DNA of 64,000 nt from the IMG/VR virus record IMGVR_UViG_3300036768_001879, positions 3,441 to 67,440 of that record, one strand, 5' to 3'. Each line of letters opens with the position of its first letter. Within the stretch, counting starts at the first letter, position 1. Below are positions 14,635-64,000 of the stretch, piece by piece. The notes under the pieces were generated by a model. That model saw only the letters and a program-made list of their open reading frames with translations. It ran no database searches and was not told where the DNA came from. This stretch comes from a virus. The translations under genes were made by a program, and so were the position numbers.

Positions 14635-15040
14635 ACCGGATCCTTCGAGCGAGGGCGCGCGCATCACTGAACGCCTGCCGGACGGCACGCTCATTGTGCT
14701 CGCTGGCGGACAGGAGTACCGCGCGCTGCCCGCCGCCCGGATGCGCGAACTCGACAACGCGCTTGAGGACAAGCGCCTGCTGGCGGAAAAGGTGGCGCTG
14801 CTTGAGGCGCAGCTGGCCGAGCGCCGCCGCGCCGCTGAACTCGACGCGCGCGAGCGCCAGCTGTACGCCAGCCAGCTGGCCGCCCGCGAACGCGAAACGG
14901 CGCTCTGGCGGCAGCTGTTTGAGAAGGCCGACAAGGCGGCTCGCCCTGGCCGCGTGCGCCGCTTTCTGGATCATCCGGTCGCGGCCATCCTGCTGGAAGC
15001 TGTCGTCCCGGTGGTTACGCTGGCCCTCAGAATGCGTTGA
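14585..15040 (+). CDS. putative outer spanin-like protein
   Basis: Overlaps previous gene; Cys-containing signal-like N-terminus, coiled coil, hydrophobic C-terminus; start uncertain. Confidence 0.4.
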   Translation: MLMCCVVTCSAQNARAEPDPSSEGARITERLPDGTLIVLAGGQEYRALPAARMRELDNALEDKRLLAEKVALLEAQLAERRRAAELDARERQLYASQLAARERETALWRQLFEKADKAARPGRVRRFLDHPVAAILLEAVVPVVTLALRMR

Positions 15041-15060: not shown

Positions 15061-15801
15061 ATGACTGAAAAAATGAAAACCGCCCGCGCCGCCGAACCAG
15101 CCCGGCTCAGTATCGAATACCTGCCGCTGCGCCGAATCCGCCCGCTCCCGCGCAACGCCAAACAGCACGACCTCGAAGCGATCATCGCTTCAATCAGCGA
15201 GTTCGGCTTTCTTGACCCTATCGGCATCAACAAGCGCACCGGACACGACCTTGACGGCAATGGCCGCCTGGAGGCGCTGCAGGAGATGGAGCGGCGCGGA
15301 CTGCCGCCGCCGCGCGGCATTGTGGCGGGCCGCAACGGCTGGGAAGCGCCCACCGTGGCGGGCATCAGCCTTGACGCAGCCCGCGAAGCCCGCGCCGCGC
15401 TGGCCCTGAACCGCACCAATGAACTGGGCGGTTTCGACGAGCAGCTGCTGCTTGAGATCCTGCGCGAATGCGAGCAGGAAGGCGGACTGGAAGCCACCGG
15501 CTACACGCCGGATTTCATCAACAGCCTGATGATGCGTCTTGACCCGCCCGCCGCCGCGCCCGCCGCCGCCGCGCCGGCAGTGTCGCTGGATCTGGTCAGC
15601 GCGCCGCCATCGCAGGTGCGGATGGTGCAGTTGTTCTACACCGCCGAAACGCAGCCCGTTCTGCTCAGTCGCGCTGCGGATCTGATTGACGCCGGTGCGG
15701 TGCTCGATGATGCGGGCGCGCCCGTGCGCGACCTCTCGGAACTCGTCTTCGCTTTGATTCGCAATGCTCACGCTCAACTTGAAACCGGTGCTGACCGATG
15801 A
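15061..15801 (+). CDS. ParB/Srx-like N-terminal domain protein heading the DNA-modification operon
   Basis: RNAKQHD..IIASISEFGFLDPI..LDGNGRLEAL..LALNRTNELGGFD. Confidence 0.75.
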   Translation: MTEKMKTARAAEPARLSIEYLPLRRIRPLPRNAKQHDLEAIIASISEFGFLDPIGINKRTGHDLDGNGRLEALQEMERRGLPPPRGIVAGRNGWEAPTVAGISLDAAREARAALALNRTNELGGFDEQLLLEILRECEQEGGLEATGYTPDFINSLMMRLDPPAAAPAAAAPAVSLDLVSAPPSQVRMVQLFYTAETQPVLLSRAADLIDAGAVLDDAGAPVRDLSELVFALIRNAHAQLETGADR

Positions 15802-16672
15802 AGAGACGGCGGCGCTGGCCGGACGACTGCTGCCCGCCAGCGCCGCGCCGCTCGTGCTGCGCGAAGACGCCGACGTCTGGCGGCCTGACGGCACACTGCT
15901 GCTGCGCTTCCGCAAGCGCGTCTTCGGGTTTGACGAATGCCGCACGGCCTGGCGCGCGCTGCGCGCCGCCGCCGTGACGACGGACAATCGCGGCGTGGCT
16001 GCCGGAGCCATTGACGATCCCGGCGCGACCGAGCGCCCGGCTGCCATTGTCACCGGCACGCGCTACCGCCCGCTCAAGCGCGATGGCACCGTCTCGAACA
16101 CCAACTTCGCAAAAAAGGTCAGGAGCGGCGTGATCGGGTTCTTTGACCGCAATGTGCGCATCCCCTACTGCCGCCAGACGGCCTTCAACATCAACCACGC
16201 TTCAAGGTTCGCCGCCGCGCTGCCGTTTATTCAGAGCGTCAGCCGGGTCTTCCAGCGCGAACTGCCGGAACGCTGGGCGGCGCAACGCGCCATCTGCGAT
16301 CAGACGCACCCGGATTTCCTGATTCCGGGTACCGTCTTTACCACCGTCACGGTCAATCGCAACTGGCAGACCGCCGTTCACAAGGATGCCGGCGACCTGC
16401 CGGAAGGCTTCGGCGTGCTGAGCGCCCTGAGCGTGGGCGATTACGACGGCTGTTACTTCTGTTTTCCGCAGTACGGCGTGGCTGCCGATCTGCGCACGGG
16501 CGATCTGCTGCTCGGCGATGTTCACGCCTGGCACGGCAACACGCCGCTGCGCGGGCGCGGCAATTACGAGCGCCTGAGCCTGGTGTTTTACTACCGCTCG
16601 CGCATGCGCGACTGCGGCAGCGCCGAAGCCGAACTGTCCCGCGCCCGCTCCGGCCTGCGCACCCTGCGATGA
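15764..16672 (+). CDS. TET/JBP-family 2-oxoglutarate/Fe(II) DNA pyrimidine dioxygenase
   Basis: CRQTAF, FTTVTVNRNWQTAVHKDAGD (HxD), WHGNT (distal His), RLSLVFYYR (2OG-binding Arg). Confidence 0.88.
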   Translation: MLTLNLKPVLTDEETAALAGRLLPASAAPLVLREDADVWRPDGTLLLRFRKRVFGFDECRTAWRALRAAAVTTDNRGVAAGAIDDPGATERPAAIVTGTRYRPLKRDGTVSNTNFAKKVRSGVIGFFDRNVRIPYCRQTAFNINHASRFAAALPFIQSVSRVFQRELPERWAAQRAICDQTHPDFLIPGTVFTTVTVNRNWQTAVHKDAGDLPEGFGVLSALSVGDYDGCYFCFPQYGVAADLRTGDLLLGDVHAWHGNTPLRGRGNYERLSLVFYYRSRMRDCGSAEAELSRARSGLRTLR

Positions 16673-31379: not shown

Positions 31380-32828
31380 ATGAAGCGACGACACCGGAAA
31401 GCTCAACCGCCGCCGCGCCGCAGCGCAGCCACTGCCGCCGCCGTGCAGCCCGCGCCAGGCTTTGATCCGACGCAGGATTACGTGTCCGGCGGGCAGCGCA
31501 TGCCCGGCGCTGAAGCGCGCGCGCTCGGCATTGAACCGCTCGACCAGGATCATCGTCAGCGGTTTCAGACCTACGAGCGGATGCTCGACGACGCCGACAT
31601 TGCCGCGCCGCTGATGATCCTGAAGAACGCCGTCCTGAACGCGCCCATTCAGGTGCTCTCGCGGGTTGACGATGACACCGCGCCGGATTACGCCCGCGCC
31701 ACCGAGCTTGCCGCCTTCGGCGAATGGGCGCTCAGTAACCTGCAGACGCCGCTGCGCCGGACGCTCTACCAGATGCTCGACTCGCGCGTCTTCGGCTACA
31801 AGATCGCCGAGCAGACCTGGATGCCCGTGACCGAAGGCCCGTACAAAGGCAAGACCACCGTGCGCTCGCTCAAGGTCAAGCCGGTGCGCAACCTGGCCTT
31901 TGTGACCGATCAGTTCAACAACATTGTCGGGTTCCTCTACGTGGGCAAAAACAGCCCGCTGGTGGCGGCGGCGCAGGGCGTGGTGGACCCGCAGCGGCTG
32001 CTGCCGCGCTCCAAATGCGCCGTGCTCAATCACAACCTGATGGACGAGGATCCGCGCGGGCGCAGCAGCCTGCGCCCGCTGGTGGGCGACTGGATCATGC
32101 GGCGGCAGCTGAAGCCGGAGTATCTGCGGCATCTGCAAATCTTCGGCGGCGGCTTCATCGTGGGCGAAACCGCGCCCAATGCGCCCGACGAGGAGCGCCG
32201 CGACGAGACGACCGGCGAACTCGTGCTCAAGGACGGCAAGCCGGTCAGGATCTCGGCTGTCGCCTATATGAACTCGCAGCTGCGCAAGCTGCGGCAGGGC
32301 GGCACCATCGCCGTGCGCAACGGCGCAAAGATCAACATCATTCAGGCCGAGAACGACGGCGAAGCCTACATCAAGGCGTTCAACTGGCTGACGCAGCGCA
32401 GCGTGCGCGCGCTGCTCGGACAGACGCTCGCCGTGCTTGAAGGCGAACACAACGCGCGAGCGGCGGCTGACACGGCGCTGCGCGTGCTCTGGATGCTGAT
32501 TAAATCCGTCAAGCAGGACATTGAGGAAATGCTGCAGCAGGACGTCCTCAAGCCGCTGCTGATTGAAAACTATGGGCGCGCGGCAACCGAACTGCTGCCG
32601 CGCGTCAGCCTGGGCGACGTCGAAGCCAAGGACGTGGCCGCGCTGGCCAATGCGGTAGCCGCGCTCGGGCAGATCAACTGGTGGGAAGAAGATCAGAAGG
32701 ATGCGCTCAACACGATGATGAACTTCCCGACTTCGCGCCGCCGTCAGAGCGGCGACAGCACAGGCAATGCCGGAACCGGAGAACAAAACCAGGGCCAGGG
32801 GCCGGGCGCTGCGCCGCAGCGAGCGTGA
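31380..32828 (+). CDS. portal protein (DUF935/Mu gp29-like)
   Basis: YERMLDDADI, FGYKIAE, DPRGRSSLRP, ALLGQTL motifs; position before head genes. Confidence 0.8.
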   Translation: MKRRHRKAQPPPRRSAATAAAVQPAPGFDPTQDYVSGGQRMPGAEARALGIEPLDQDHRQRFQTYERMLDDADIAAPLMILKNAVLNAPIQVLSRVDDDTAPDYARATELAAFGEWALSNLQTPLRRTLYQMLDSRVFGYKIAEQTWMPVTEGPYKGKTTVRSLKVKPVRNLAFVTDQFNNIVGFLYVGKNSPLVAAAQGVVDPQRLLPRSKCAVLNHNLMDEDPRGRSSLRPLVGDWIMRRQLKPEYLRHLQIFGGGFIVGETAPNAPDEERRDETTGELVLKDGKPVRISAVAYMNSQLRKLRQGGTIAVRNGAKINIIQAENDGEAYIKAFNWLTQRSVRALLGQTLAVLEGEHNARAAADTALRVLWMLIKSVKQDIEEMLQQDVLKPLLIENYGRAATELLPRVSLGDVEAKDVAALANAVAALGQINWWEEDQKDALNTMMNFPTSRRRQSGDSTGNAGTGEQNQGQGPGAAPQRA

Positions 32829-51403: not shown

Positions 51404-54276
51404 TGCCGATTCTCTCCGACAAACTGGCCGGTTCAAATGTCGTGCTGCCTTACGGCATGCACATCACCGCTGGCAGCACTGTGGCCTACGCGCGCGACAC
51501 CCGCAGCAACCGCATCAAGCTGATCTCGCTGCTCTCGGAAGGCGTCTGCGATTCGCAGGTCGTCGGCGGGCTGGAAAAAGCCGTGACGGTCTACTACGCG
51601 GGCGAGGAGATTCCGGAGTTCGACAGCAACAATCAGCGCAACTGGAAGTACCATCCGGGGCAGCTTTCAGCCGGATTTGACGACCCGGTGCAGGGCGCGC
51701 CTTACTTCTGGCAGCCGCCCTGGGATCCCACGCTGCAGTTCACCTTTTCAGGTTCGGCTTACCTTGAACTGCTGCTTCCCGAAGCCTTCAGCGAGGGCGA
51801 GGAAGAACCCACGCGGCTCAAGGTCTACTACCGCACGCTTCAGGTGCCGGACTACGATCAGTTCGGCAACTGGCAGGGCGACAGCTACAGCAGCAATCTG
51901 GCGCGCGTGGCGCTCGATCTGCTGCTGCGCCGGATGGGGCTGCCCGAGCGCCGCATCAACTGGGCGTCGTGGTATGAGTTCCGTCAGCGGTGCGGCGAAC
52001 TGATCCCCTGGAATCCGGGACCGGGCGGCAGAACGGCCACGGTTGATGTGAACGGCAGCGTGCTGACCTGGAAGAGCGGGCGCAGGTTTGAATCCTTCTG
52101 GACGGGCACGGTCTTCGTGGCCGGGCAGGGCTACCAGATTCAGAGCGTGGACAGCGACACGCAGATCACGCTGACCGCCGCGCCACCGGCAGCGCAGGAC
52201 GTGAATTTCCGCTGGGGTTATGTTGAGCGGTTCCAGGCCAACGTGGCGTTTTCAAACGTCCCGGCAGGCGAGGCGTTTGTCTATCTGATGGCGCTCGCGC
52301 CGGGCTGCACGTGGCAGGACGTCAACGGGCAGATCAGGTTTATCACAACGCCCGTGCGCAGGCCGGTGCATCATTTCCGCTTCGATACGGAATCGGTCAA
52401 CCCGTCGAACATCGTGGCCGATACGGTCACGTTCTCGCGCATCCGGCAGGAGGAACGGCCCACGCTGCTGCGCGTCAAATTCCGCAATCTGGACGACCTG
52501 TACCTGGCCGAGAAGGAGATCAGCGAGATCCGCGACACCGGCGCTGGCTTTGAGCGCGGCGTGCCGGAGCCGCTCAACTGGGGCGTGATGACCGAAAGCC
52601 AGGCGCAGCGCGCGCTGCGCACGCTGATGGTTGAGAATCACGACCTCGACGTGCTGGCCACGCTGCACGGGCAGGGCGACAGTTACCGCGTGGCCAGGGG
52701 CGACGTGGTGGAACTGAGCTTTGAATCGCTCGGCGTGCGCGAGAGCGCGCCGTTGCAGATGCTGGTGCGCGAGGAAACCTTCCAGAGCACGGCCACCGGC
52801 GAGGACGAGCGCGTCTTCAAGCTCCAGCTTTACGACCCGGAATTCTACAGCGACGAACTGCACGGGCCGGTGCAGCCGGTCATTGTCACCGATCTGCCGC
52901 CGCTGGCTTCGCCGGGCATTGCGGCGCGCACGCGCGCGCGCCGGGCGATTGACCCGACCGGGCGCTATCGCGGCAGGGACACGGGCGTCTTCGACCGCGC
53001 GCGGCTGGTCAAAGTCACCTACAACGACATTCAGATTCTGGAAAACGGCCTGCAGATGAGCTTCCGGCTCTACGGCGAGATTGACAACGGCGACGGGCGC
53101 GCCAACGCCGACAGCCTTGAGGCAGCGTGGCTGAAGGTGTACGACAAGTTCGGCAATCTGATTTACGACAACAAGTACCCGTTCAGAGGGCAGGGCAAGC
53201 TGGGCGGCGGCGTGATCCTGCGCGCCAACGCAGATCCGCGCGAGGAGGCGGTGTTTGAAATCCGGCTGATGAACGCCTTCGGCTGGTCGCAGCCGCGCTT
53301 CATCACGTGGCGTCCGTGGTCGGGCGTGGCCGGTGAACTGCTCAACAATCTGCCATCGTTTTTGAACCCGGACGACTGCCCGCAGAACCTGAAAGCCGTG
53401 CCGGTCAGCGACAAGCAGGTCAGGCTGACCTGGACACCGGCGCGCAACGGCGGAGCAAATCAGGCGGCGTTCATCAAGTACCCGCTGCTCGGCTACGAGG
53501 GCTGGACGTGGCTGACGCCTCCGGTCGCGCCGTATGTTCCGGCGCTATCGCCCGCCGAGAACACGCTGCTGGTGGGCGTGGAGGCTCCGCTGCAGCCCGA
53601 TTCGATTTACGACTTCGCCATCTGGCGCAGCGCCAACGGCGAGTTCCGGTCGAACATCGCTTTTGTGCGCACGCTCAATCAGCCGATTGTCGTTGACACG
53701 CAGCGCAGCGCGCCGGGCAGTCTGGCGGCGGTGCCGCTCGATTCAACGCACGTCAAGCTGACCTGGACGCGCAACGCCGGCGACAATGACGCCGTCGAAG
53801 TCGAGGAGGATGGCGCAGTGGTGACGACGCTCACGCCCGGCTCCACAACCGAATACACGCGGGCGGTGGCGGCGGGCAGCACGCACACCTGGCGCGTGCG
53901 CAACAAATGGATGAGCGGCGTGACGTACTCCGAATGGAGCAACGCGGCGCAGGCCACAACGCCCGCAGGAACGGCAGGCGACCCGTCGCAGCTGTCGGCG
54001 CACGCCACGGGCGCGCGGGCCGTGGCGCTCGCCTGGAACAACAACGGGAACACGGGCGCGGTGACGCTGAAGTGGCGCGAAGCCGGGCTGACGGCCTGGA
54101 ACACGCAGCTGCTGGCGGGCGGCACCACCAGCTACACCAAATCCGGACTGCAGCCGGAAACCGAGTACGAGTTTCAGATTGAGATCACCGGCGCTGCGCA
54201 GCCGTCGAACATCGCCTATGCGATCACTGATCCGATCATCAGAGACGACCCTTACGGCGGCGGCAGCGTCCTCTGA
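51403..54276 (+). CDS. central tail fibre / host-specificity protein with fibronectin III domains
   Basis: SNLARVALDLL, INWASW, GDVVEL; C-terminal FN3 repeats (LTW..., GLQPETEYEF). Confidence 0.75.
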   Translation: MPILSDKLAGSNVVLPYGMHITAGSTVAYARDTRSNRIKLISLLSEGVCDSQVVGGLEKAVTVYYAGEEIPEFDSNNQRNWKYHPGQLSAGFDDPVQGAPYFWQPPWDPTLQFTFSGSAYLELLLPEAFSEGEEEPTRLKVYYRTLQVPDYDQFGNWQGDSYSSNLARVALDLLLRRMGLPERRINWASWYEFRQRCGELIPWNPGPGGRTATVDVNGSVLTWKSGRRFESFWTGTVFVAGQGYQIQSVDSDTQITLTAAPPAAQDVNFRWGYVERFQANVAFSNVPAGEAFVYLMALAPGCTWQDVNGQIRFITTPVRRPVHHFRFDTESVNPSNIVADTVTFSRIRQEERPTLLRVKFRNLDDLYLAEKEISEIRDTGAGFERGVPEPLNWGVMTESQAQRALRTLMVENHDLDVLATLHGQGDSYRVARGDVVELSFESLGVRESAPLQMLVREETFQSTATGEDERVFKLQLYDPEFYSDELHGPVQPVIVTDLPPLASPGIAARTRARRAIDPTGRYRGRDTGVFDRARLVKVTYNDIQILENGLQMSFRLYGEIDNGDGRANADSLEAAWLKVYDKFGNLIYDNKYPFRGQGKLGGGVILRANADPREEAVFEIRLMNAFGWSQPRFITWRPWSGVAGELLNNLPSFLNPDDCPQNLKAVPVSDKQVRLTWTPARNGGANQAAFIKYPLLGYEGWTWLTPPVAPYVPALSPAENTLLVGVEAPLQPDSIYDFAIWRSANGEFRSNIAFVRTLNQPIVVDTQRSAPGSLAAVPLDSTHVKLTWTRNAGDNDAVEVEEDGAVVTTLTPGSTTEYTRAVAAGSTHTWRVRNKWMSGVTYSEWSNAAQATTPAGTAGDPSQLSAHATGARAVALAWNNNGNTGAVTLKWREAGLTAWNTQLLAGGTTSYTKSGLQPETEYEFQIEITGAAQPSNIAYAITDPIIRDDPYGGGSVL

Positions 54277-54353
54277 GCTTGCTGCGCTCTGGCCAGAGAG
54301 TCGCAGCGAGACCGCGCAGACCTGCGGGCAGGTCTGACGGTTTGTTCTGGAGC

Positions 54354-54389
54354 GCCGGGAGCGCGAGAGCTTCCGGCCTTTTTTTTTTT
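54354..54389 (+). terminator. intrinsic terminator ending the late operon
   Basis: GCCGGGAGC-GCGAGA-GCTTCCGGC + T11, between convergent genes. Confidence 0.8.
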
Positions 54390-54796
54390 CACACGGAATA
54401 TGTCACGCGGTCGCCCGGACGCTCGCCGCGCACGCCGACCTCGCGGATTCCGGCGCGCTGAAGCTGCTGCTGCCGGGCATCCATCCAGGCGCGCACCAGC
54501 CCTGCGCCCTCGCCCACATCGAACGAATAACGATTGAAGAACGGATGCACGGCCAGCAGGCGGTCGCGCTCGATGACGACGCGCACGTTGTTGAAGGCGG
54601 GCCAGGCGCGCGCAATCAGGCTGTCGTATTCAGCGATCAGCGCGGCGCGCAGTTCCGGCGTTGACGCGGGCAATGGCGCGGGCGCGCTGGCGGGAGCGGC
54701 AGGCTGCCGCCGCTCATCGCCCGCGCCTGACAGCCACAGAGCGATGAGCGCCAGCAGAGAGAGCGCGACCAACAAACGGCGCGTTGAATTGTGCAT
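54389..54796 (-). CDS. membrane-anchored protein (possible superinfection exclusion)
   Basis: N-terminal TM LLVALSLLALIALWL; co-oriented with the putative repressor. Confidence 0.55.
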   Translation of the reverse strand: MHNSTRRLLVALSLLALIALWLSGAGDERRQPAAPASAPAPLPASTPELRAALIAEYDSLIARAWPAFNNVRVVIERDRLLAVHPFFNRYSFDVGEGAGLVRAWMDARQQQLQRAGIREVGVRGERPGDRVTYSV

Positions 54797-54801
54797 AAAG
54801 G

Positions 54802-55029
54802 TCAGGCGGCGCGCGGCCCGCGCTTGCGCCCTTTGATCCAGCCGCGCGGCGGCGGATTGAAGGTGTGGATGAAATCCTCGGGGATCATCCAGTATGAGCC
54901 GCGCGCGTCCTGCATCAGTCGTGCGCCAGGGATGCGCCCGCGCCGCAGATGGAGTTTGAAGCCCGCCAGCGACAACCGGCTGCCGGTGCGCTCGCACCAC
55001 AGCCGGTGTGCCTCGCGGACGGTCAGCAT
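54802..55029 (-). CDS. small MerR/Xis-like HTH DNA-binding protein, candidate repressor
   Basis: MLTVREA..LRRGRIPGA..YWMIP pattern, basic tail; divergent from the early operon; alternative start 55056. Confidence 0.65.
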   Translation of the reverse strand: MLTVREAHRLWCERTGSRLSLAGFKLHLRRGRIPGARLMQDARGSYWMIPEDFIHTFNPPPRGWIKGRKRGPRAA

Positions 55030-55064
55030 TCGCGTTGCAGAGTTCACGTTGTGCATACTCCGAT

Positions 55065-55190
55065 AAAATAATCGCTCAGTCAATTTATTCAAAATTCCGC
55101 ACTCGTAACACATTGATTTTTCAGCACTTATCGGAAAAAATTACAGACCGGTAATTTTATCTTGACATAAAATTACAGGCCGATTATTTT
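55065..55190. promoter_or_regulatory. divergent switch: rightward sigma70 promoter and three 22-bp operators
   Basis: TTGACA(55162)-N17-TATTTT(55185); operators AAAATTACAGACCGGTAATTTT (55137), AAAATTACAGGCCGATTATTTT (55169), AAAATAATCGCTCAGTCAATTT (55065). Confidence 0.75.
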
Positions 55191-55196
55191 ATTTGC

Positions 55197-55856
55197 ACGC
55201 TGAGAGCGAAACCCGAAGCGGATTAATAAGTAGTTCCGGCGTCGCCGAATCGTGCGATTTCGGCGGTTGTTTGAAAATCGAATCTGATCGGGAGATGGCC
55301 GTAGGGAAACCCGGCGACGATGGGATTAACAAGTAGCGCGCGAAACCGCAGGACGGAATAACAAGTAACGCAGCGAAACCCGGAGCCGGAAGTAACAAGT
55401 ACCCGCCGACGCTGTAAAACCAGCACACGGATGGCAGAAGGGTCGAGACAGTTGTGAGAACTGGCGCACCTGATCGGGCGTGAGAGTGATCGCGCGACGC
55501 AGAATCGGCGCGAATCGTTCGTGGCGACCCCACGGGCGCAGAGATCGGGGCTGTAACCCGAAGGGAACGGAAAACGCAGGAACGGCGGCAGCGAAACCGC
55601 GAAGCGGAATAACAAGTAGCCAGCCCGCGACGACCCGAAGTGAAAAGCGTTTCAAGTTCCCCGCATAAACCCGTCAGCGAAATCCCGGTCAGACGAAACC
55701 CGAAGTGGATTAACAAGTAGTCGGAGGGAACCTAACAAGTAGCTGACTGGCTGCTGTGGCGCGAAACCCGAAGGCGAAACCGCGAAGCGGATTAACAAGT
55801 AGCCAGGGACGTAAGAAGTAGCGCCGCAGGAAGGCGAAACGCGCCGCGTGCGCGTC
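55197..55856 (+). ncRNA. ~660-nt non-coding leader RNA with a hairpin-TAACAAGTAG repeat array
   Basis: About 9 copies of GAAA-CC..GG hairpin-A(T/A)TAACAAGTAG with covarying stems; bounded by the promoter and the hammerhead cleavage site. Confidence 0.65.
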
Positions 55857-55895
55857 TGTCCGCGCCGGGCAAGCGGACACTGATGAGCCAGCCCG
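55833..55895 (+). ncRNA. type II hammerhead ribozyme with pseudoknot
   Basis: GGC-GAAA-stem III-GUC(55856)-stem I UGUCCGC/GCGGACA-CUGAUGA-GCC; loop I CGGGC pairs with downstream GCCCG. Confidence 0.88.
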
Positions 55896-55945
55896 AACAA
55901 CCGCAGGCGAAGATTCTTCGCCCGCCTTACGAAAAGGAGATTCGC

Positions 55946-56371
55946 ATGAAACCATCACGCACCACTCCGAACACCGCCGCGACTCAGAACGAAGAACTGG
56001 AAGCCCGCCGCGCACGCGCGCACATGCTCGCCGCGCGGGAAGCCGAAGACTTCCGCAAAGCTTTCGATACCGACCCGGTTTACGCCATCAAGTGGCACGG
56101 CGACTCTCTGTTGCGCCGCTCATTTGAGGCGCGCCTGACCGATGACGTTATCAGCAGGCTGCTCACGGTCGAGCCTGCCGCCCGCGTGCGCGCGCTGGAG
56201 CAGATGCGGCGGACCGCGTTCAACTCCTTCCTCGCTGAAGTCACCGCGAGCGGGCCGGGCACGATCAATCAGATGGTTTCCCGCCTCGACTTCGAGGCGC
56301 TGGGCGCGGCGCTCAGAGCGCACGGCCTGTTCGATGAACTGGCCAGCCTGCTCGCTGAGCGCCCGGAATAA
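55946..56371 (+). CDS. hypothetical early protein
   Basis: AAGGAG RBS before ATG 55946. Confidence 0.6.
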   Translation: MKPSRTTPNTAATQNEELEARRARAHMLAAREAEDFRKAFDTDPVYAIKWHGDSLLRRSFEARLTDDVISRLLTVEPAARVRALEQMRRTAFNSFLAEVTASGPGTINQMVSRLDFEALGAALRAHGLFDELASLLAERPE

Positions 56372-56429
56372 CGCTGACCGCGCTGTTGATCCAGGTCAGC
56401 AAAACGTTTCCCTGACACAAAGGAGCCTT

Positions 56430-56687
56430 ATGAACACAAACGCAGTGGCGCGTCACAGCGTCAACACCTTCCCCTGCCTGGACGCGGCCATCGGGTTTAT
56501 CGAAACCCTGGTCACCTTCTGGCCCACGCTGCACGATGCCGAGATCACGCTGCGCGGCACCGAGGTGCGCGCCGTCATCACGCTCGACGCGGCGGGCGGT
56601 TCGCCGGAACGTCTCGACAGCCTGCTCGCTGACGTGAACCTGTTTGCCCGCGCTTACGGGCGCGGCTACCAGCGCGGGCGCGCTTAG
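56430..56687 (+). CDS. hypothetical early protein
   Basis: AAGGAG RBS. Confidence 0.55.
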   Translation: MNTNAVARHSVNTFPCLDAAIGFIETLVTFWPTLHDAEITLRGTEVRAVITLDAAGGSPERLDSLLADVNLFARAYGRGYQRGRA

Positions 56688-56784
56688 AGCGGCCTGCGAC
56701 CGACACAACAAAGGCGTGAAGCATTCGAGCCGGAATGCCTCCCGCCTTCATTTCCTGTCTAACCACAACAGAAAGGATACCACC

Positions 56785-57285
56785 ATGTTGCACAATCCAG
56801 CTTCAACAAGCAACTCGGTTCGCATCTTCAGACTTGAAGTCAGCGCCAACCCGTACTCGCCGGTCGCGTATGCGCCCGCCGCCGAACGCGCCCGCGTGGC
56901 CGCGCGCCGCAGCGAAGCCTTCAACCACATCCGGATCAATCCGGCAGCCGAACGGCGCACGCCGGAGCCGCGCCCCGCCGCGCTGCCCGTTGAATTCAGA
57001 GAGCAGGCTGAGAACGCCTTTGACGCCGCGCCCGCCACGACGCCGGAACGCGGGCTGAACGGCGTCAGGCCGAGCCGGGTAGCGGTGGCGCAGGCGCTGC
57101 GCCAGATCGCTCCGGCGCTCACGGGCGTGCGGCTGCTCGACCTGCTGGGCGTCAATCACAGCGGGCGCAGCTACCGGCGCTACGTTCACGGCACCGAAGG
57201 GCGCGCGTGGGCCGCGCGGTCGCACGAAGAACGCGCCGCAGCCGGATGGGTCGCCCTGCAGCTGCTCTCACAGGCCGGACTGTGA
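56785..57285 (+). CDS. hypothetical early protein
   Basis: AAAGGA RBS. Confidence 0.55.
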   Translation: MLHNPASTSNSVRIFRLEVSANPYSPVAYAPAAERARVAARRSEAFNHIRINPAAERRTPEPRPAALPVEFREQAENAFDAAPATTPERGLNGVRPSRVAVAQALRQIAPALTGVRLLDLLGVNHSGRSYRRYVHGTEGRAWAARSHEERAAAGWVALQLLSQAGL

Positions 57286-57321
57286 AGGCGCGGTCAACAA
57301 CACAGAAACAGGAGAACAGCC

Positions 57322-57972
57322 ATGACCAATACCAACGAATATGGAGCGCTGATCCGGGTGCCGGAGTGGGCGCTGCTCCTGATGCAGGAGCTTGAGCAGG
57401 CCGGCGCCTGGACGACCGGCATTGAACACGTCGGCTCGCGCGGCGGCTTTCAGGCCGTCAATATCGCCTGCTATGCTGCTGACGATGCGCGCGAGCTGGC
57501 CGTGGTGCAGGTGCGCGAAGCCTTCAAGCGCAAGGCTTCGCACTGGCTGCGCGTCAGGAAGAACTACTTCCTGATCGGGCGCAACGAGAACGGGCGCGCC
57601 TTTGCGCACGCCATTCCCTCGCCTCGTCGTTTCACTGCCGACGCCGTGGAATTTGCGCTGTGCAGCATCTGGAGATGCACGCCGCGCCAGCTTGAGCGCG
57701 TGGTGCGCAACGGCGACGTGGGCTTTGTTCCGGCGCGACGGCCCGCCGATCTTGAGCCGATTGACTTCCCGGTCGCGCTGGCCGAATCGCACCTGGTGCG
57801 CGGGCGGCTGTTCTTCTCGCCCTCGCGCGGCGAACTCTACGCCGAGGGCGAAGCCGAGATCCGGCACCTGAAGGAACAGCACGCACCGGCGCGCATCAGC
57901 AGCGGTTTTTATGCCGTGCGGGCAGGGTTCCGCGCGGCAACGTGGAACTTCAGCCGGCAGACGGCTGATTGA
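57322..57972 (+). CDS. hypothetical early protein
   Basis: AGGAG RBS, 216 aa. Confidence 0.65.
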   Translation: MTNTNEYGALIRVPEWALLLMQELEQAGAWTTGIEHVGSRGGFQAVNIACYAADDARELAVVQVREAFKRKASHWLRVRKNYFLIGRNENGRAFAHAIPSPRRFTADAVEFALCSIWRCTPRQLERVVRNGDVGFVPARRPADLEPIDFPVALAESHLVRGRLFFSPSRGELYAEGEAEIRHLKEQHAPARISSGFYAVRAGFRAATWNFSRQTAD

Positions 57973-57985
57973 AAGGAGAACGAAA

Positions 57986-58732
57986 ATGGCAATCGAATGG
58001 ACATGGAATGATGGCCTTAGCGCAAGAAGTCGTCTGTCCGCCTGTCTGGTCGTCACGGCAGACGGCGAGGTTCACCGATTTGTCGGGAAGGATATTCCGG
58101 GCACGGTGAAAATCTTGAACGAGAAGTTCGAGAAAAACGGTAAGTGGAGCAACACCACTTACTATTGCCTCAGCGCCGACGGCACAGCCGTCATCTCCTG
58201 GAAACAGGACTGGGAGAACGGCCTGTTCTGGCCGCAGTCAAGCTGGCAGGAAGCCATCGAGTGGGTGCGCTCGCAGGCCCCACTGGCTTCGCCCGCCAGC
58301 GTGGAAAGGCTCATCCGCGAGGAGTGGCCGAAAGCCGCTCAGAAATTCGACGAGAACGCGGCGGCGTTCTCGCAAATGAGCCAGCGCCCGACCCGGCAGC
58401 GCTACCTGCTGAACAGCGCGGTCATTACCGCGCCGGGCAGCTACGAATACGTCCTGCTGGATCAGGACGCGGCGCGCGACTGGCTGATGGACGGGGAGTT
58501 CATCAGCACCTGCGGGTACGCCGAGACGGCGCAGGTGCTGGAAACGTTGACCGGCGTACCTGTCCCGGTCAACCGCCAGACGATCCGGATGGAGCCGGGC
58601 GATGAGGCTCTGGTGTTCCGGCTGGCATTCCAGCCCGGCCAGGCGCGCATCAACCCGGGCGACAAGGGCGCGCTGACGCCCGAATTCGTGCGCGAGAACT
58701 GCGAGTTCGGAATCCTCAGACGAACCCGCTGA
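57986..58732 (+). CDS. fusion of an unknown N-terminal domain with a C-terminal DUF1874/AcrIII-1-like ring-nuclease domain
   Basis: YLLNS..FISTCGYAETAQVL..TGVPVPVNR..IRMEPGDEALVFRL matches the STIV B116/AcrIII-1 family pattern. Confidence 0.72.
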   Translation: MAIEWTWNDGLSARSRLSACLVVTADGEVHRFVGKDIPGTVKILNEKFEKNGKWSNTTYYCLSADGTAVISWKQDWENGLFWPQSSWQEAIEWVRSQAPLASPASVERLIREEWPKAAQKFDENAAAFSQMSQRPTRQRYLLNSAVITAPGSYEYVLLDQDAARDWLMDGEFISTCGYAETAQVLETLTGVPVPVNRQTIRMEPGDEALVFRLAFQPGQARINPGDKGALTPEFVRENCEFGILRRTR

Positions 58733-58820
58733 ACGCGCCGCTGACGGCTGGAAGTGGTTTCGGATTGCCCGTTTGTTGATTATAGTCAACAACGCGACGG
58801 GCAGACGAAACGGAGGCTGC

Positions 58821-59195
58821 ATGAAAACGGAACTGATGCCTGTCTTCGGACGCCACAGGGCGCTGCGCTGGGAGCGCGCGCCCTCGGGCGAACTGCTGAC
58901 GAACGTGCCGCACAGCGTCCGGCATCATTCGCCGGACGGCTTTGAGATCGGCTACGCCGGTTCAGGCCCGGCTGATCTGGCGCTCAACGCGCTGGCCAGC
59001 CTGTTTCCGGCGCGCCGGTCGCGCCAGTGCGTGGAGTGCTTTGACGGGCGCGTGAGCGCGACCGCCTGGCGGCTGCACCAGCAGTTCAAGTCTGATTTTC
59101 TGATCCGCGCCGACCGGCAGCGCGGCGAGATCGCCTGGGAGCGCATTCTCGCGTGGCTGGAACGGCACATCTTCGCCGGAGAAGAACGCTCATGA
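58821..59195 (+). CDS. DUF6166-like protein
   Basis: HHSPDGFEIGYAGSGPADLAL, HQQFK motifs. Confidence 0.75.
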   Translation: MKTELMPVFGRHRALRWERAPSGELLTNVPHSVRHHSPDGFEIGYAGSGPADLALNALASLFPARRSRQCVECFDGRVSATAWRLHQQFKSDFLIRADRQRGEIAWERILAWLERHIFAGEERS

Positions 59196-59458
59196 ACACC
59201 ATTCAGTACTTCGACTTCAAGCCTGACCCGGACGGAATCGAATGGATCAGGCTTGAGATCCTCTGCACTGCAGCTGAAGCCTTCGCGCTGCAGCAGTCCT
59301 ACTGCGATGCGCTGCTGGCGCGCGCCCGCACCACTGACAAAAAGGAACGCGCCCGCCAGCGCCTGAAGATGACCGCCGCCGTGCGCCATGCGCGCCGGAT
59401 TCAGGCTCCGCCGCGCGCGGTTGCCGCGCCGCCGCCGCAGGCGCGCCTCTCAAACTGA
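59192..59458 (+). CDS. hypothetical protein
   Basis: ATGA coupling. Confidence 0.5.
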   Translation: MNTIQYFDFKPDPDGIEWIRLEILCTAAEAFALQQSYCDALLARARTTDKKERARQRLKMTAAVRHARRIQAPPRAVAAPPPQARLSN

Positions 59459-59481
59459 CTGCCGGAAAGGAACGTCAATAT

Positions 59482-60984
59482 ATGATTGAACAGTACCGCA
59501 GAGCGCGGCGCGCCGGGACGCCGCTCATCGCCATCACTACGCCCGACCCGGAAGCCACGATGCAGGCGGTGGCGGGCGACGACCAGCAGCCCGTCATCCA
59601 GTGGGACATCTGCAACGGCTGGCGCGCCCGCAACGCTGCCGCTCAGACCGTGCTGCGCCAGATCAGCGCGGGCAACGATCTGCAGATGATGACCGCCAAC
59701 CCGGCTGAGATGGTCATGCTGGCTGCGCAACTGCCCGCGCAGACCACGCTCTTTGTTTTGAACGCGCACCGCTACCTGACCGCCGACAACACTCCGACCT
59801 CTGCCGGGTTCGCGCAGGGGCTGTGGAACCTGCGCGATCAGTACAAGGCGGCGGGCGCGGCGGTGGTGCTGCTCGCGCCGCAGCTGACGCTGCCCGTCGA
59901 ACTGCAGCAGGACGTGCTGGCGCTTGACGAGCCGCTGCCGGATGAAGCCGCGTTGCGCGCGGTCATCAGCGCGCTGTGCGAAAGCAACGAACTGCCCTGC
60001 CCTGACGCGGCCACGCTCGACCGCGCGGTGGATGCGCTGCGCGGGCTGGCGGCGTTTCCGGCTGAACAGGTCACGGCCATGTCGCTCGCGCGCAGCGGGC
60101 TGAAGGTGGACGAACTGTGGGAGCGCAAGCGGCAGATGATTGACGCCACGCCGGGTCTGGCGGTCTGGCGCGGCGGCGAAACGTTTGCCGACGTGGGCGG
60201 CTCGGCGGTGGTCAAGGACTTCCTGACGCGCATCCTGACTGGCCGGGCGCGTCCGCGCGTGATCGTCTTCATTGACGAGATCGAGAAGGCGATGGGAGGC
60301 GCGCAGGGCGACACATCGGGCGTCAGCCAGGACTTTCTCGGCACGCTGCTGACCGAGATGCAGGACACGCGCGCCGTTGGTTCAATCTTCATCGGCCCGC
60401 CCGGTTCAGGCAAGTCGGCGGTAGCGAAGGCGGCGGGCGCTGAGGGCGGCATCCCGACGATTGCGCTCGATCTGTCCGGAATGAAAGCCTCGCTGGTGGG
60501 CGAGAGCGAACAGCGGCTGCGCCAGGCGCTGAAGGTGATTCGCGCCGTGGGCAGCAATCAGGCGCTCTGGCTGGCGACGTGCAACCGAATCGCCTCGCTG
60601 CCGCCCGAACTGCGGCGGCGCTTCACGCTCGGCACGTTCTTCTTCGATCTGCCTTCGGAAGAGGAGCGCCGGGCGATCTGGGAAATCTATCTCAGAAAAT
60701 ACAACCTGCCAGCGCCCGAAGGCGTGAACGACGACGGCTGGACGGGCGCTGAGATCCGGCAGTGCTGCGACATTGCCTGGCGGCTCGATGTGCCGCTGCG
60801 CCAGGCAGCGCAGTTTGTTGTGCCGGTGGCGCGCGCGGCGGCTGAGGAGATCGAACAGCTGCGCCGTCAGGCGGCTGGCCGGTTTCTGTCGGCCTCCTTC
60901 CCCGGCACATACGAATACCAGACGAGCGCGCCCGCGCCAGCGGCTCGCTCAAACAAGAGCCGTTCAGTCGGCCTGGAGGATTAG
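59482..60984 (+). CDS. Ycf46-like AAA+ ATPase (internally permuted)
   Basis: ETFADVGG, FIDEIEK, GPPGSGKS, SLVGESE, ATCN..LPPELRRRF..FFDLP, WTGAEI. Confidence 0.85.
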   Translation: MIEQYRRARRAGTPLIAITTPDPEATMQAVAGDDQQPVIQWDICNGWRARNAAAQTVLRQISAGNDLQMMTANPAEMVMLAAQLPAQTTLFVLNAHRYLTADNTPTSAGFAQGLWNLRDQYKAAGAAVVLLAPQLTLPVELQQDVLALDEPLPDEAALRAVISALCESNELPCPDAATLDRAVDALRGLAAFPAEQVTAMSLARSGLKVDELWERKRQMIDATPGLAVWRGGETFADVGGSAVVKDFLTRILTGRARPRVIVFIDEIEKAMGGAQGDTSGVSQDFLGTLLTEMQDTRAVGSIFIGPPGSGKSAVAKAAGAEGGIPTIALDLSGMKASLVGESEQRLRQALKVIRAVGSNQALWLATCNRIASLPPELRRRFTLGTFFFDLPSEEERRAIWEIYLRKYNLPAPEGVNDDGWTGAEIRQCCDIAWRLDVPLRQAAQFVVPVARAAAEEIEQLRRQAAGRFLSASFPGTYEYQTSAPAPAARSNKSRSVGLED

Positions 60985-60987
60985 GTT

Positions 60988-61311
60988 ATGCCCTGCTGGG
61001 AACGCAGAGAGATCACGGTGCAGCTGGACGCGGCTGACCCGGCGCTGTTGCGCGCCGGGCTGCGGGCTGCCGGATTTGAACTCGAAGAGCGCGGCGACAC
61101 GCTCTACGTCAGGCGCGCCGGGCGCATCAGCATCGGCGCAGCGGCCCGCATCACGGGCGGGCAGGTGATCGTTGACGAAGCCGACCGGGAGATTGTCAAC
61201 GAGATCACACGCGCCTACAGCGCTGAAGTCGTCCGGGCAACGGCCCGGCGCTTCGGCTGGACGGCGCAGGAAACCGGGCCGAACCGGCTCAAACTGGGCA
61301 GGAGGTTCTGA
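60988..61311 (+). CDS. DUF1257/Ycf35-like protein
   Basis: [27 protein letters not shown]; adjacent to the Ycf46-like ATPase. Confidence 0.55.
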
Positions 61312-61568
61312 TGGCTGTCTGCAAATACTGCGGGCAGGAGATGCTCCGCGCGCCGACCTGTCATGCCAACACGGTCATTGAATATCCTGGCGGCGAAAAG
61401 CTCCCGGCTGTTCGCTGGGACGGCCCGGCAGCCGGCAGCTGTCCGGACTGCGCGGTCGAGCCGGGCGGTTTCCATCATCCGGGCTGCGACTGCGAACAAT
61501 GCCCGCGCTGCGGCGGGCAGCTGCTCAGTTGCGGGTGCCTTGACGAGGAGGAAGATGATGACGCCTGA
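61311..61568 (+). CDS. Cys/His-rich zinc-binding protein
   Basis: [27 protein letters not shown]. Confidence 0.7.
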
Positions 61569-61845
61569 CGCGCCCCGCCCGGCTGACGACCGGATTGCGC
61601 AGCTTGAACGCAACCCGCATTTCCTGCAGATCGTGAACGAACTGGTCGCCGACCCGCAGCTGCTGGCGCGGCTTGAAGCCGGGGAACCGGACGTATTGCG
61701 GGAAGCCAGCAACCGTGCGGCAGATCACTTCCTGCTGCTCACGCTGCGCCAGCCCGCCTTCAACGAACTCGCTCGGCTGCTGAGCGATCTGGTCTACGAC
61801 CGGATCAGAAAGGAAAAACCTGATGATCGAAGTCATCGCCATTGA
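61555..61845 (+). CDS. hypothetical protein
   Basis: GAGGAGG RBS, coupled to previous gene. Confidence 0.5.
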
Positions 61846-61956
61846 ACGCACCGTCTGCGCCTGCGCCGATGTGCAGGCAACAGTCGGCAGCCAGCGGTGA
61901 AGGGCGCTTTTTTATAAATCCGCCAGCGCAGGGCTGGCACAACCAGGGAGAAACTT

Positions 61957-62166
61957 ATGAACAGAGTTGAGAAATTCGCTCGCATGACTCAGCGCGCCGC
62001 TCATCTGAGGGCGTGCTGCCCGCCGGACAGCCTGCCCTCAGTGGGCTGGCGGCGCAAAATCCGGCCTGATCGTCGGCCCGCACATCAGCGCGTGGCTCGT
62101 CTCCGCGCGGGAGTGCATACCGCCAAACTGGAATTTTACCGGCAGCGTGTCAACCTGCCCAATTGA
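61957..62166 (+). CDS. hypothetical protein
   Basis: GGGAG RBS; weak support. Confidence 0.35.
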   Translation: MNRVEKFARMTQRAAHLRACCPPDSLPSVGWRRKIRPDRRPAHQRVARLRAGVHTAKLEFYRQRVNLPN

Positions 62167-62184
62167 CCGATAAGGAGAACAGAG

Positions 62185-62397
62185 ATGAACGAGAAATCAA
62201 TCACGGTGGAAATCCTGCCCGACGGGCGGGTGAAAGTCGAGACGGGCGACCTGTCCGGCCCGCAGCACATGAAGGCCGACCAGTTTCTGCGCGAGATGGC
62301 GCGACTGCTCGGCGGCGACGTGACCGTCGAGAAGCTCAACCACCACCACCACCATCACCACCATCACAATCACAATCACAACAAGCGCAAAAACTAA
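62185..62397 (+). CDS. DUF2997-like protein with poly-His tail
   Basis: ITVEILPDGRVKVET..LARLLGG; C-terminal HHHHHHHHHNHNHN. Confidence 0.65.
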   Translation: MNEKSITVEILPDGRVKVETGDLSGPQHMKADQFLREMARLLGGDVTVEKLNHHHHHHHHHNHNHNKRKN

Positions 62398-62425
62398 GCA
62401 ACCAGACCAGGCAGAAAGGAACGTT

Positions 62426-63376
62426 ATGTCCAGAGCCACCGACAAACAACTCGCTTCAGTACCCGCCACTGCCGCGCGCATCAATCAGGACACGGTCTGC
62501 ATTGATCTGCAGATCACTTCGCCGGGCGTCCGGCGCAAGCTCGATGTGAAGCGGCTCAACGTTGAGGCCGACCGCGAGATGATTCACGCGGGAAAAGACA
62601 TTATCGAATCGGCGGCGATGCAGCCGATCTGGAACCGCGACGGGCGCATGCGCGACCGGCTGAAATCGCGCGCCGTGCCGGTGTCAATGCTGCGGCCCGG
62701 CCTGTACCTGGTGCCGGTGCAGCTGATCCCGCAGATCGAGCGGGAGATGGAGCAGTACCAGAGCGAGCGCGAAGAACTGATTGACGCCTTCTTCGCGCGC
62801 TACCCGGAACTGATTGCAGCCGCGCGGGAGCGGCTTGAGCCGCAGGGGCTGTTCGATGCAGACGATTATCCGCCCGCTGAACAGCTGCGCCGCGCCTTCG
62901 CGGTCAGGCTGCGTTACCTGACTTTCAACGTTCCGGCAGCGCTCGAACAGGTCAACCGCAGGCTGTTCGAGCGCGAGCGCGAGCGCGCCGAGCGCGAATG
63001 GCAGGAAGCGGTCACGGAAATCCGCGAAGCGCTGCGGCTCGGCTTTGCCGACCTGGTCGGGAAGATGGTCAACCGGCTGGGCGAAACAAAGAACGGCACG
63101 CGCAAGGCGCTGCGCGACGACGCCCTGGAGGAGATGAACGACTTCCTGGCGATCTTCGAGGCGCGCAACCTGACCAACGACGCCGAACTGTCGCGGCTGG
63201 TGACGGCGGCGCGCAACGTGATGAACGGGCTGAGCGTGGACGCGCTGCGCGGCAAAAACAGCGCAGCGCTGCGCCAGGACGTGCGCCGCGACTTCGAGCA
63301 GCTGGGCGCGAAGCTGGAAACGCTCGTCAAACCTGCCGGTCGCCGGGTGCGCTTTGATGATGACGATGAACAGTAA
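62426..63376 (+). CDS. DUF3150-like protein
   Basis: GLYLVP, FFARYP, DDYPPAEQLRRAF, RNLTNDAEL. Confidence 0.6.
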   Translation: MSRATDKQLASVPATAARINQDTVCIDLQITSPGVRRKLDVKRLNVEADREMIHAGKDIIESAAMQPIWNRDGRMRDRLKSRAVPVSMLRPGLYLVPVQLIPQIEREMEQYQSEREELIDAFFARYPELIAAARERLEPQGLFDADDYPPAEQLRRAFAVRLRYLTFNVPAALEQVNRRLFERERERAEREWQEAVTEIREALRLGFADLVGKMVNRLGETKNGTRKALRDDALEEMNDFLAIFEARNLTNDAELSRLVTAARNVMNGLSVDALRGKNSAALRQDVRRDFEQLGAKLETLVKPAGRRVRFDDDDEQ

Positions 63377-63593
63377 ACCGGTAACAGCCGGGCCGGGCGG
63401 GTGCTGCGATACCCCGCCCGGCCTGACCGAACGCACGCGCCGCCGCTGGTTTGAACTGCGCCCGTCGCAGCGCCGGAGAATTCTGGTCGCGCTGCGGCGC
63501 TACGAAACCGCCTGCGCGATGCTTGATGTTGACCCTGACCGCGAGGAATGGGTTGCCGACGCCATTGCATGGCAGAAAGGACAGGACAGATGA
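63366..63593 (+). CDS. hypothetical protein
   Basis: Coupled ORF between the DUF3150-like and Rad52-like genes. Confidence 0.4.
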   Translation: MNSKPVTAGPGGCCDTPPGLTERTRRRWFELRPSQRRRILVALRRYETACAMLDVDPDREEWVADAIAWQKGQDR

Positions 63594-64000
63594 GTCAGAC
63601 ACAACCTCAAACCAAAGAAGCACCGGCCTTCCGCCGCCCGATCCGCGAGATCATTGCCGACCTGAGCAAGCCGATCCCTGACCGCTTTCTGAAGGAGAAG
63701 ACCATCAAGAACAGCAAGCTGACCTACATTCCGTGGCATTACGCCGTGAAGCTGCTTGACTGGTACGCGCCGGGCTGGTGCTATGAAGTGCGCGACATTA
63801 CGCCCATCGGCGGGCAGACGGTGCTGACCGTGCGGCTGACGATTCCGGCTGCGGAAGGCGACTTCTGGCGCGAGGCCACGGGCATCGAGGAAGACGAAGT
63901 GACCGGCTACGGGGACACTTCGAGCAACGCCGAATCAATGGCGCTGCGGCGCGCTGCGGCCAAGTTCGGGCTGGGGCTGTACCTCTACGAAAAGAAGTAA
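63590..64000 (+). CDS. Rad52/Rad22-family single-strand annealing protein
   Basis: LTYIPW..LLD..APGW, VRLTI, REATG, NAESMALRRAAAKFGLGLYLY. Confidence 0.85.
   Translation: MSQTQPQTKEAPAFRRPIREIIADLSKPIPDRFLKEKTIKNSKLTYIPWHYAVKLLDWYAPGWCYEVRDITPIGGQTVLTVRLTIPAAEGDFWREATGIEEDEVTGYGDTSSNAESMALRRAAAKFGLGLYLYEKK

Follow-up and report, generated by a model that had tools for sequence, protein, structure and literature searches.

Background

In the leader of the lambda N gene, a block on translation is relieved by RNase III. A loop running from boxA to the polymerase has been proposed to block ribosome access, lambda N included, in an account whose boxA consensus is gamma-proteobacterial (PMC5725501). 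This account and a second one describe Nus loops that repress translation of the downstream gene and a Nus complex that chaperones RNA folding (PMC5725501, PMC8632103), and the put element of phage HK022 is given a length of about 65-70 nt (PMC9378689, PMC8632103).

Phages rarely carry large structured RNAs, and for most of these the function is unknown. Type III antitoxins (ToxI, CptI, TenpI) consist of tandem head-to-tail pseudoknot repeats accompanied by a terminator and a toxin gene; Racrs and CRISPR mini-arrays carry CRISPR-repeat-like units that are solitary or evenly spaced; and sponges of the CsrB and CrcZ type offer repeated single-stranded GGA loops or CA motifs. What bacteria and phages use hammerhead ribozymes for is called an open question in a review of the subject (PMC6765202).

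Here we analyze the leader of a phage early operon in a 64,000-nt stretch of viral DNA (hereafter, the window). By sequence comparison, this leader reads as a non-coding RNA, conserved and covarying, in which a two-strand loop recurs many times, one site resembles boxA and the hammerhead is complete. An initial annotation of the region, made from its letters, had proposed that the first transcript of infection cuts itself and releases a multivalent repeat RNA; we follow up its claims and set the locus against the systems outlined above.

Materials and methods

The window belongs to a 67,440-nt IMG/VR record classed as a provirus and 77% complete. DNA contigs matched to it showed 0 differing letters, and the sole spanning contig may be the window's own source. 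Homologous sequence was taken from a second IMG/VR record, G002, represented by the loci L002, L241, L499, L503 and L527; coordinates without a locus name refer to the window. For the comparison of leaders, helices were assigned by hand with registers set for maximal pairing, and the boxA hairpin was excluded from the pair count. The two strands of each repeated module were assigned to one another by eye, and the assignment was then scored against all permutations.

Results

The host of this temperate phage is probably a member of the Blastocatellia: the five organism-named relatives of its tyrosine integrase among 120 listed are all Acidobacteria, Pyrinomonadaceae or Blastocatellia. We infer this host rather than assign it, because the named relatives of the AAA ATPase come from mixed taxa. 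The genome carries no tRNA genes. The leader region (Table 1) sits 3' of the tail genes and their terminator (54354-54377), which are followed by a small divergent HTH gene whose homologue in L241 (47% identity) is likewise placed divergently. The sigma70 promoter of the initial annotation is present, with TTGACA at 55162 and TATTTT at 55185-55190 separated by a 17-nt spacer; two promoter sites were found in 53500-60000 versus 0.4 in shuffles, and the counterpart in L241 (6525-6553) keeps the 17-nt spacer. Three AT-rich palindromes around this promoter are putative repressor operators of a divergent switch, with the HTH gene product as the candidate binder. Allowing up to three substitutions, the operator pattern matched the 67-kb genome only at 55136-55191, and the 55063 copy was found separately.

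Table 1. Coordinates of the features of the leader region and early operon
Feature	Position	Strand	Evidence or remark
Small divergent HTH gene	54802..55056	-	phrog_10045 HTH, E 0.0014
Three AT-rich operator-like palindromes	55063-55088, 55136-55160, 55167-55192	.	flank and overlap the promoter
Sigma70-type promoter	55162..55190	+	10/12 consensus letters; start inferred near 55197
Predicted structured non-coding RNA, ~660 nt, 5' hammerhead product	55197..55856	+	repeats, L002 comparison, fold
Arm 1 with M1 (GAA 55208 / tail 55224)	55197..55242	+	stems in unconstrained fold
boxA-like site, Blastocatellia rRNA-operon type	55265..55282	+	+68 from inferred start; conserved in L002
Domain closed by 8-bp long-range helix (55285-55292 with 55469-55476)	55285..55476	+	L002 comparison
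Arm 2: M2 (GAA 55306 / tail 55393), permuted M3 (tail 55327 / GAA 55375), M4	55304..55403	+	
M4 in Arm 2	GAA 55342 / tail 55359	+	replaces UUCG-capped stem of L002
M5 (GAA 55593 / tail 55610)	55584..55625	+	no L002 counterpart
Arm 3: M6 (GAA 55679 / tail 55733) around M7 (GAA 55695 / tail 55711)	55671..55749	+	
Arm 4: M8 (GAA 55763 / tail 55812) around M9 (GAA 55776 / tail 55793)	55754..55829	+	
Type II hammerhead	55832..55897	+	Rfam RF02276, 45 bits vs gathering 37; predicted cut after C55856
First operon gene	55946..56371	+	AAGGAG RBS upstream; not common to L002
Near-orphan protein	56785..57285	+	52% identity to L002 3087-3635
Two-domain protein, C-terminal DUF1874 / STIV B116 domain (AcrIII-1 family)	57986..58732	+	PF08960, E 1.2e-13
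Conserved distal operon: AAA ATPase, weak DUF3150 match, Sak/Erf-like annealing protein	59482..64000	+	

The leader had been described as free of any credible ORF, and this holds: the longest stop-free stretch on the + strand is 64 codons, the 175-codon ORF on the minus strand does not show the GC3 bias that real genes have, and of 10 indels relative to the L002 homologue 8 break the frame. The proposed length of about 660 nt for the released RNA follows from hammerhead chemistry at the predicted cut, and the equivalent RNA of L002 would span ~600 nt (about 2103-2701). Taken whole, the 704 nt show ordinary folding stability (z = +0.36, Vienna); the same energy model, which does not score non-canonical pairs, charges 29 kcal/mol for holding the nine loops open.

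With at most one mismatch, TAACAAGTA has 10 matches in the window, 9 of them inside 55224-55820, versus 0.97 expected by chance over the whole window and a maximum of 4 in 100 shuffles, and all nine tails named in the initial annotation were located. The tail strand reads GGA-N1-3-UAANAAGUA and its partner strand GAA(A/C)YC, in tail-to-partner counts of 9:9 in the window and 6:6 in L002; 2000 shuffles yielded at most one tail each and about one partner on average (maximum 6). The unit had been read as a GAAA, a hairpin and a tail in fixed order; the repeat stands and the fixed order does not, since what recurs is a two-strand internal loop, which in three copies encloses others and in one is permuted. 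Bases 5' of GAA pair with bases 3' of AGUA, and bases 3' of GAAN pair with GG; the module is therefore an internal loop closed at each side. In 15/15 modules there is no variation in GAA, the second C or UAA-AAGUA, and the N position is occupied by all four bases. M6 encloses M7, M8 encloses M9, and M2 encloses M3, which has its strands in reverse order and in turn encloses M4; spacing between repeats is irregular, from 19 to 217 nt. The M3 equivalent of L002, likewise permuted, closes a stem of four pairs capped by UUCG; in the window this loop is replaced by M4, a whole extra module whose closing pair is a C-A mismatch. The partner assignment falls within the top 30 of 362,880 permutations for the window (score 74; maximum possible 77) and is the best of 720 for L002, ranks that count as support and not as P values because the assignment was picked by eye. 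In 11 model-aligned matches the paired share was 75.8% (3 of 500 shuffles), a result to be given little weight, as 10 of these matches are training copies, which favours the model.

An AGUA opposite GAA, closed by helices, which we take to mark the bulged-G (sarcin/ricin, loop E) motif, is present in 15/15 modules, with a canonical closing pair in 14/15. The bulged-G motif is described as a modular 5x4 loop (PMC8450098). The loop of the module measures 4 x 11-12 nt, versus the standard 5x4 or 6x5 of the sarcin/ricin motif, and the module is a compound motif at best, because this larger loop adds a UAAN bulge. In three dimensions it would combine a bulged-G (S-turn) GAA/AGUA element with a UAAN bulge beside two C-G pairs.

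The modules are carried on larger arms. The basal stem of Arm 1 covaries with L002, and the long-range helix that closes the 55285..55476 domain keeps 8/8 pairs there, through two double and two single changes; inside the domain lie further helices and, at 55449-55463, a hairpin with a GNRA cap. Between M2 and M3, both phages have an internal loop (55316-55321 with 55382-55384) that we presume to be kink-turn-like on the consensus for that motif. Arm 3 nests without constraints in its L002 version (z -3.84), whereas the isolated window version does not (z +0.16); for Arm 4 of the window, the MFE and centroid structures computed without constraints are both nested (z -1.87), and the L002 equivalent is a single module. 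The first list of features was right on promoter, tails and hammerhead, and had missed the boxA-like site, the kink-turn-like loop and several covarying helices.

Among the matches listed, the leader has one independent homologue, in IMG/VR record G002, with 73% identity in the ATPase and a mean column identity of 76% in the leader. The order of divergent HTH gene, promoter, array and hammerhead core is conserved in this second phage despite a rearranged upstream genome. Comparison of 74 leader pairs between the window and L002 gives 50 identical, 11 changed on one side, 10 changed on both, 2 broken in L002 and 1 broken in the window. Pairing is kept in 21/23 changed pairs (10 by double change) versus 8.6 expected, for two sequences and hand-built helices; since only two independent sequences are available, the covariation is not statistically calibrated. 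All 11 one-sided changes involve G-U pairs on the + strand, versus 1 A-C break. Covariation and this tolerance of G-U on the + strand argue for an RNA structure rather than a DNA site, in agreement with the initial reading of the stems.

Among the matches listed, searches for further relatives gave these two phages and no other. Among 675 loci, those of G002 were alone in having more than two tails per 800 nt. A pattern scan of viral contigs gave 2 matches, 1 of them genuine; a second gave 2, of which the one in L526 is coding; and a further scan gave 85, the 84 others being without modules. In loose-pattern scans of metagenomes and genomes, those of the listed matches that were screened were due to chance. 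Across 401 Blastocatellia/Acidobacteriota samples, BLAST gave short weak matches in 34 (0/20 examined had a tail), the module pattern occurred in 29, about the level of the reversed control, and the ATPase was found in 1; the module model R1 had a single match in 2 of 151 such samples, one of them reading as a gene end. INPHARED phages and plasmids gave short weak matches only, tail clusters were found in 0/22 other ATPase loci, and R1 in 0/5 whole records, L262 included. Against Rfam 15, the hammerhead alone reached gathering level in the leader, and nothing relevant appeared at E up to 10.

The complete hammerhead reported at the end of the array is confirmed by an above-gathering match to Rfam Hammerhead_II, in which C55856 is the cleavage-site nucleotide. 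From the predicted cut it is 90 nt to the start codon at 55946 and ~78 nt to the RBS, which corrects the original placement 90 nt upstream of the RBS. The hammerhead core comprises three stems and is open at stem II, and a pseudoknot joins loop I to the 3' tail (55866-55870 with 55891-55895). Changed pairs are kept in L002 in 9/10 cases, 8 by double change and the pseudoknot included; Rfam missed the L002 hammerhead, whose stem III is longer and whose core has one additional A. Folded in isolation (Vienna), the window hammerhead favours a competing structure. Among ATPase relatives without the array, Rfam ribozymes occur in 2/15 loci, a twister in L251 and a type II hammerhead in L262. Judging from these loci and from L250 (below), operons of this type habitually place a ribozyme ahead of an RBS, in agreement with PMC5737381 and PMC6765202. 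The hammerhead alone is consequently not proof of a dedicated release device, because related operons that lack the array also place ribozymes before the RBS.

Other ribozyme-like sequences were noted along the way. The L251 twister (9555-9611) and the L262 hammerhead (14882-14949) each lie directly upstream of an RBS, as do three hammerhead cores in L250 (9906, 12229 and 12602) that Rfam missed. L245 has a hammerhead or twister near 21318, and type II hammerhead-like sequences without modules are present in L480, L425, L396, L388 and L484, which are unrelated viral contigs.

Near the 5' end, the leader contains a sequence resembling an element found 67-155 nt upstream of the 16S gene in 14/14 rRNA operons of Blastocatellia-class genomes, with a second such element in the spacer of 11/14 by pattern match. 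Judged by their position, we take these host elements to be boxA sites. Scored with a matrix built from these 25 host sites (14 leader and 11 spacer), for which the host-site pattern was written after the phage motif had been seen, the window site ranks 1 of 134,846 genome positions (24.7 bits; next 14.1), inside the host range, and it shares 16/17 letters with one host spacer site. The runner-up, at 32557-32574 (14.1 bits), falls within the late region. The L002 site ranks first of 42,984 positions in L241 with a score of 15.1, under all 25 host sites (minimum 19.3). Over 12.0 million positions of other loci, 1 reaches the score of the window site and 29 that of the L002 site. NusB-NusE is reported to bind boxA in single-stranded form (PMC2800207); in both phages the site folds as a weak hairpin (window, -4.5 kcal/mol), which two changes in L002 strengthen. 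A boxA-like match was found in 1/16 relative loci, which is near chance by count and not by position: it lies in L262, a distant phage that shares the operon of ATPase, DUF3150-like and small genes and whose leader is without modules.

That region of L262 (8481-8934) shows a terminator, a TATAAT for which the scan gave no -35 partner, a boxA-like site at 8637, about 80 nt on, and a ~280-nt non-coding structured leader, and it is preceded by an HTH-like gene. Mimicry of rRNA by the modules was considered and rejected, R1 scoring at most 12.5 bits on six host rRNA operons.

Genes of the operon offer few further clues. The near-orphan protein has 5 matches in 1.84 billion representatives, 2 of which are the queries' own clusters, and is a candidate RNA partner by co-occurrence only; its C-terminal ~70 residues are conserved. 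Family searches with the early genes returned no other matches, ESM Atlas gave no usable match for two shared small proteins, and no toxin family was found among 10 genes scanned. The anti-defence genes that the initial annotation placed downstream gain some support from one gene with an AcrIII-1-family domain (for the role of this family, see bioRxiv 778746), with AFV3-109 and STIV B116 as structural relatives. Against it, a Tyr replaces the catalytic His, and the protein was not found in 21.5 kb of L241. This domain may bind, and not cut, cyclic oligoadenylate. A search for intrinsic terminators turned up no strong one on the sense strand of the window operon or of that in L002/L241.

Several smaller features of these operons were recorded. 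A small helical arginine-rich protein of no family is encoded just upstream of the ATPase (59192-59458; also L002 5257-5538), and both L241 and L262 encode relatives of a small protein with a histidine-rich end (62185-62397). Long hairpins in gaps between early genes (56712-56750; L002 4965-5054) are possible RNase III sites, the L002 one giving a weak Chloroflexi-1 match (E 0.011). L241 contains a ~640-nt intergenic tract of degenerate five-base GGCNN-type repeats (about 15170-15810), and iteron-like direct repeats lie within replication-type genes in L241 (19270-19500) and L246 (7790-7920).

Discussion

The reading that we put forward, tentatively and as somewhat more apt to fail than to stand, is that of a prophage lytic-switch transcript made in rRNA style under Nus protection, from which the hammerhead frees a multivalent protein-binding RNA while unblocking the first gene. 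The leader would be the 5' end of a repressor-controlled, lambda pL-like early transcript and a product in its own right. Upon induction, the polymerase of the host would start near 55197, and the host-type boxA at +68 would recruit NusB-NusE and an rRNA-type elongation complex, which would keep Rho away from some 750 untranslated bases and from the operon, and would aid folding. The folded arms would then present nine copies of one compound loop. The hammerhead, to go by its complete core, would cut after C55856, leaving a ~660-nt RNA with a cyclic-phosphate end; the cut would also remove the boxA-to-polymerase loop presumed to block translation of the first gene, making the hammerhead a self-contained equivalent of RNase III. 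The free RNA would most likely titrate or scaffold one RNA-binding protein, of host or phage, early in lytic growth. The two phages differ in module number (9 versus 6) through whole modules inserted at the tips of arms, which makes the modules look like additive, independent binding sites; and because HK022 antitermination takes ~70 nt and L262 seems to do without modules, they look like an add-on with its own job. We prefer a free protein-binding RNA since a variable number of modules fits additive sites better than a fixed cage.

That the RNA is an effector of a new class, built by nesting one 3D module (bulged-G plus UAAN bulge) and acting in trans within minutes of induction as a tunable trap, with many binding sites, for an RNA-binding or defence protein of the host, with a borrowed rRNA signal and a cut that replaces RNase III in unblocking the early operon, we consider doubtful. 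If the free RNA does trap a host protein, it would be a form of RNA counter-defence unlike Racrs or antitoxin mimics. Two identities suggested initially for such an effector, an RNA anti-CRISPR and a type III antitoxin mimic, fail because the modules are irregular, nested internal loops and not tandem repeats: no Rfam CRISPR repeat matches at E up to 10 and units spaced 19-217 nt apart are nested, and, for the antitoxin, there is no Rfam match, no sense terminator after the array and no toxin family among the 10 genes scanned.

The presence of a boxA-like site makes a serious rival of a cis-acting antitermination leader, an expanded nut or put in which the modules are boxB-like docks for an N-like protein, NusA or polymerase. 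We judge this unlikely, and equally unlikely its corollary that the hammerhead only frees the mRNA and leaves the severed RNA without a role of its own. The location at the start of a repressor-controlled early operon, with a boxA-like site, speaks for it, as does L262 with its boxA-like site and no modules; since put activity is reported to persist without a nascent-transcript tether (PMC9378689), the hammerhead cut is compatible with it too. A put of ~65-70 nt makes 6-9 copies over 600 nt hard to explain, however, no strong sense-strand intrinsic terminators turned up in the operons, no N-like protein was identified, although such proteins are hard to detect, and the first genes differ between the phages. 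An architectural RNA that needs no protein, akin to ROOL or GOLLD, with the modules as A-minor or loop-receptor docks for folding or homo-oligomer assembly, appears improbable. It draws on a similar size (ROOL env-120 has 659 nt) and a prophage location, on the A-minor contacts described for those cages (bioRxiv 2024.12.08.627333) and on the description of sarcin-type and UAA/GAN motifs as promoters of such contacts (PMC2615604); yet no Rfam match to ROOL, GOLLD or OLE exists at E up to 10, no kissing loops were noticed, and a gain of three whole modules between relatives is ill-suited to a fixed cage geometry.

Very improbable, in our estimate, is an array of small self-cleaving ribozymes of a new class that chop the leader into short RNAs. 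Bacterial self-cleaving ribozymes are reported to cluster near certain gene classes (PMC5737381), this operon type bears hammerheads and a twister, and the module and the hammerhead have a stem-GAAA-stem half in common; but the copies are nested or permuted within one conserved larger fold, none lies between genes, and the conserved letters match a known structural loop. We give least credence, next to none, to repeats that act as DNA (iterons, protein sites or single-stranded hairpins) or form part of a gene on the minus strand. Several hairpins have a GAA triloop with a C-G closing pair, an element that is very stable in DNA; long minus-strand ORFs are present as well. Against this stand the irregular spacing, the excess of + strand G-U pairs over A-C breaks, the siting of the array between a promoter and an RNA enzyme, and indels that mostly break the frame in a region without GC3 bias.

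On the preferred reading of a freed protein-binding RNA, the locus would give a concrete candidate use for bacterial and phage hammerheads, the severing of a Nus-bound leader from its mRNA. The window RNA is also a natural case of an RNA assembled from nested modules, its loop is a candidate for a new 3D motif, and it offers experimental handles in its invariant core with a neutral position, its copy-number variation, its defined promoter and 3' end, and its predicted Nus site.

Comparison with known systems

The individual parts of this leader are of known kinds; in the publications searched, neither their combination, a nested repeated module with an rRNA-type boxA and a hammerhead, nor the array RNA was found described. 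With the lambda pL leader and HK022 put it shares an early operator-controlled promoter, a 5' boxA-like site, a structured leader and a predicted cut between that site and the first RBS. Its boxA is nevertheless of rRNA type, no boxB or N protein was identified, the leader runs to ~750 nt with 6-9 loops, and the cut would be made by a hammerhead where the lambda N leader uses RNase III. As in bacterial rRNA operons, a boxA-like site, here identical in 16/17 letters to a Blastocatellia spacer site, precedes a long untranslated structured RNA; unlike in those operons, it lies on a phage early transcript without rRNA.

ROOL and GOLLD resemble the window RNA in being about 600-800 nt long, multi-stemmed and prophage-encoded, whereas the latter has no Rfam match to either, comes from a genome without tRNA genes, repeats one module and ends in a hammerhead. 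Dictyoglomi-1 RNA (RF01703), which we take to carry several bulged-G modules, matches nothing in the genome at E values of 10 or less; the window RNA is three times longer, with nested modules and an extra UAAN bulge. Many copies of a short site are also the mark of the CsrB/RsmZ and CrcZ sponges, and the modules do have GGA and some an AANAANAA run. Here, by contrast with CsrB and CrcZ, the GGA is paired in the inner stem in 15/15 modules, and the A-rich run is complete in 6/15 only and paired in a structured loop; the window RNA is, moreover, phage-encoded and predicted to be ribozyme-processed. The hammerhead, finally, belongs with the type II hammerheads near phage genes (RF02276), has a pseudoknot and stands closely before an RBS, as in the related operons; here it would in addition provide a large conserved RNA with its 3' end.
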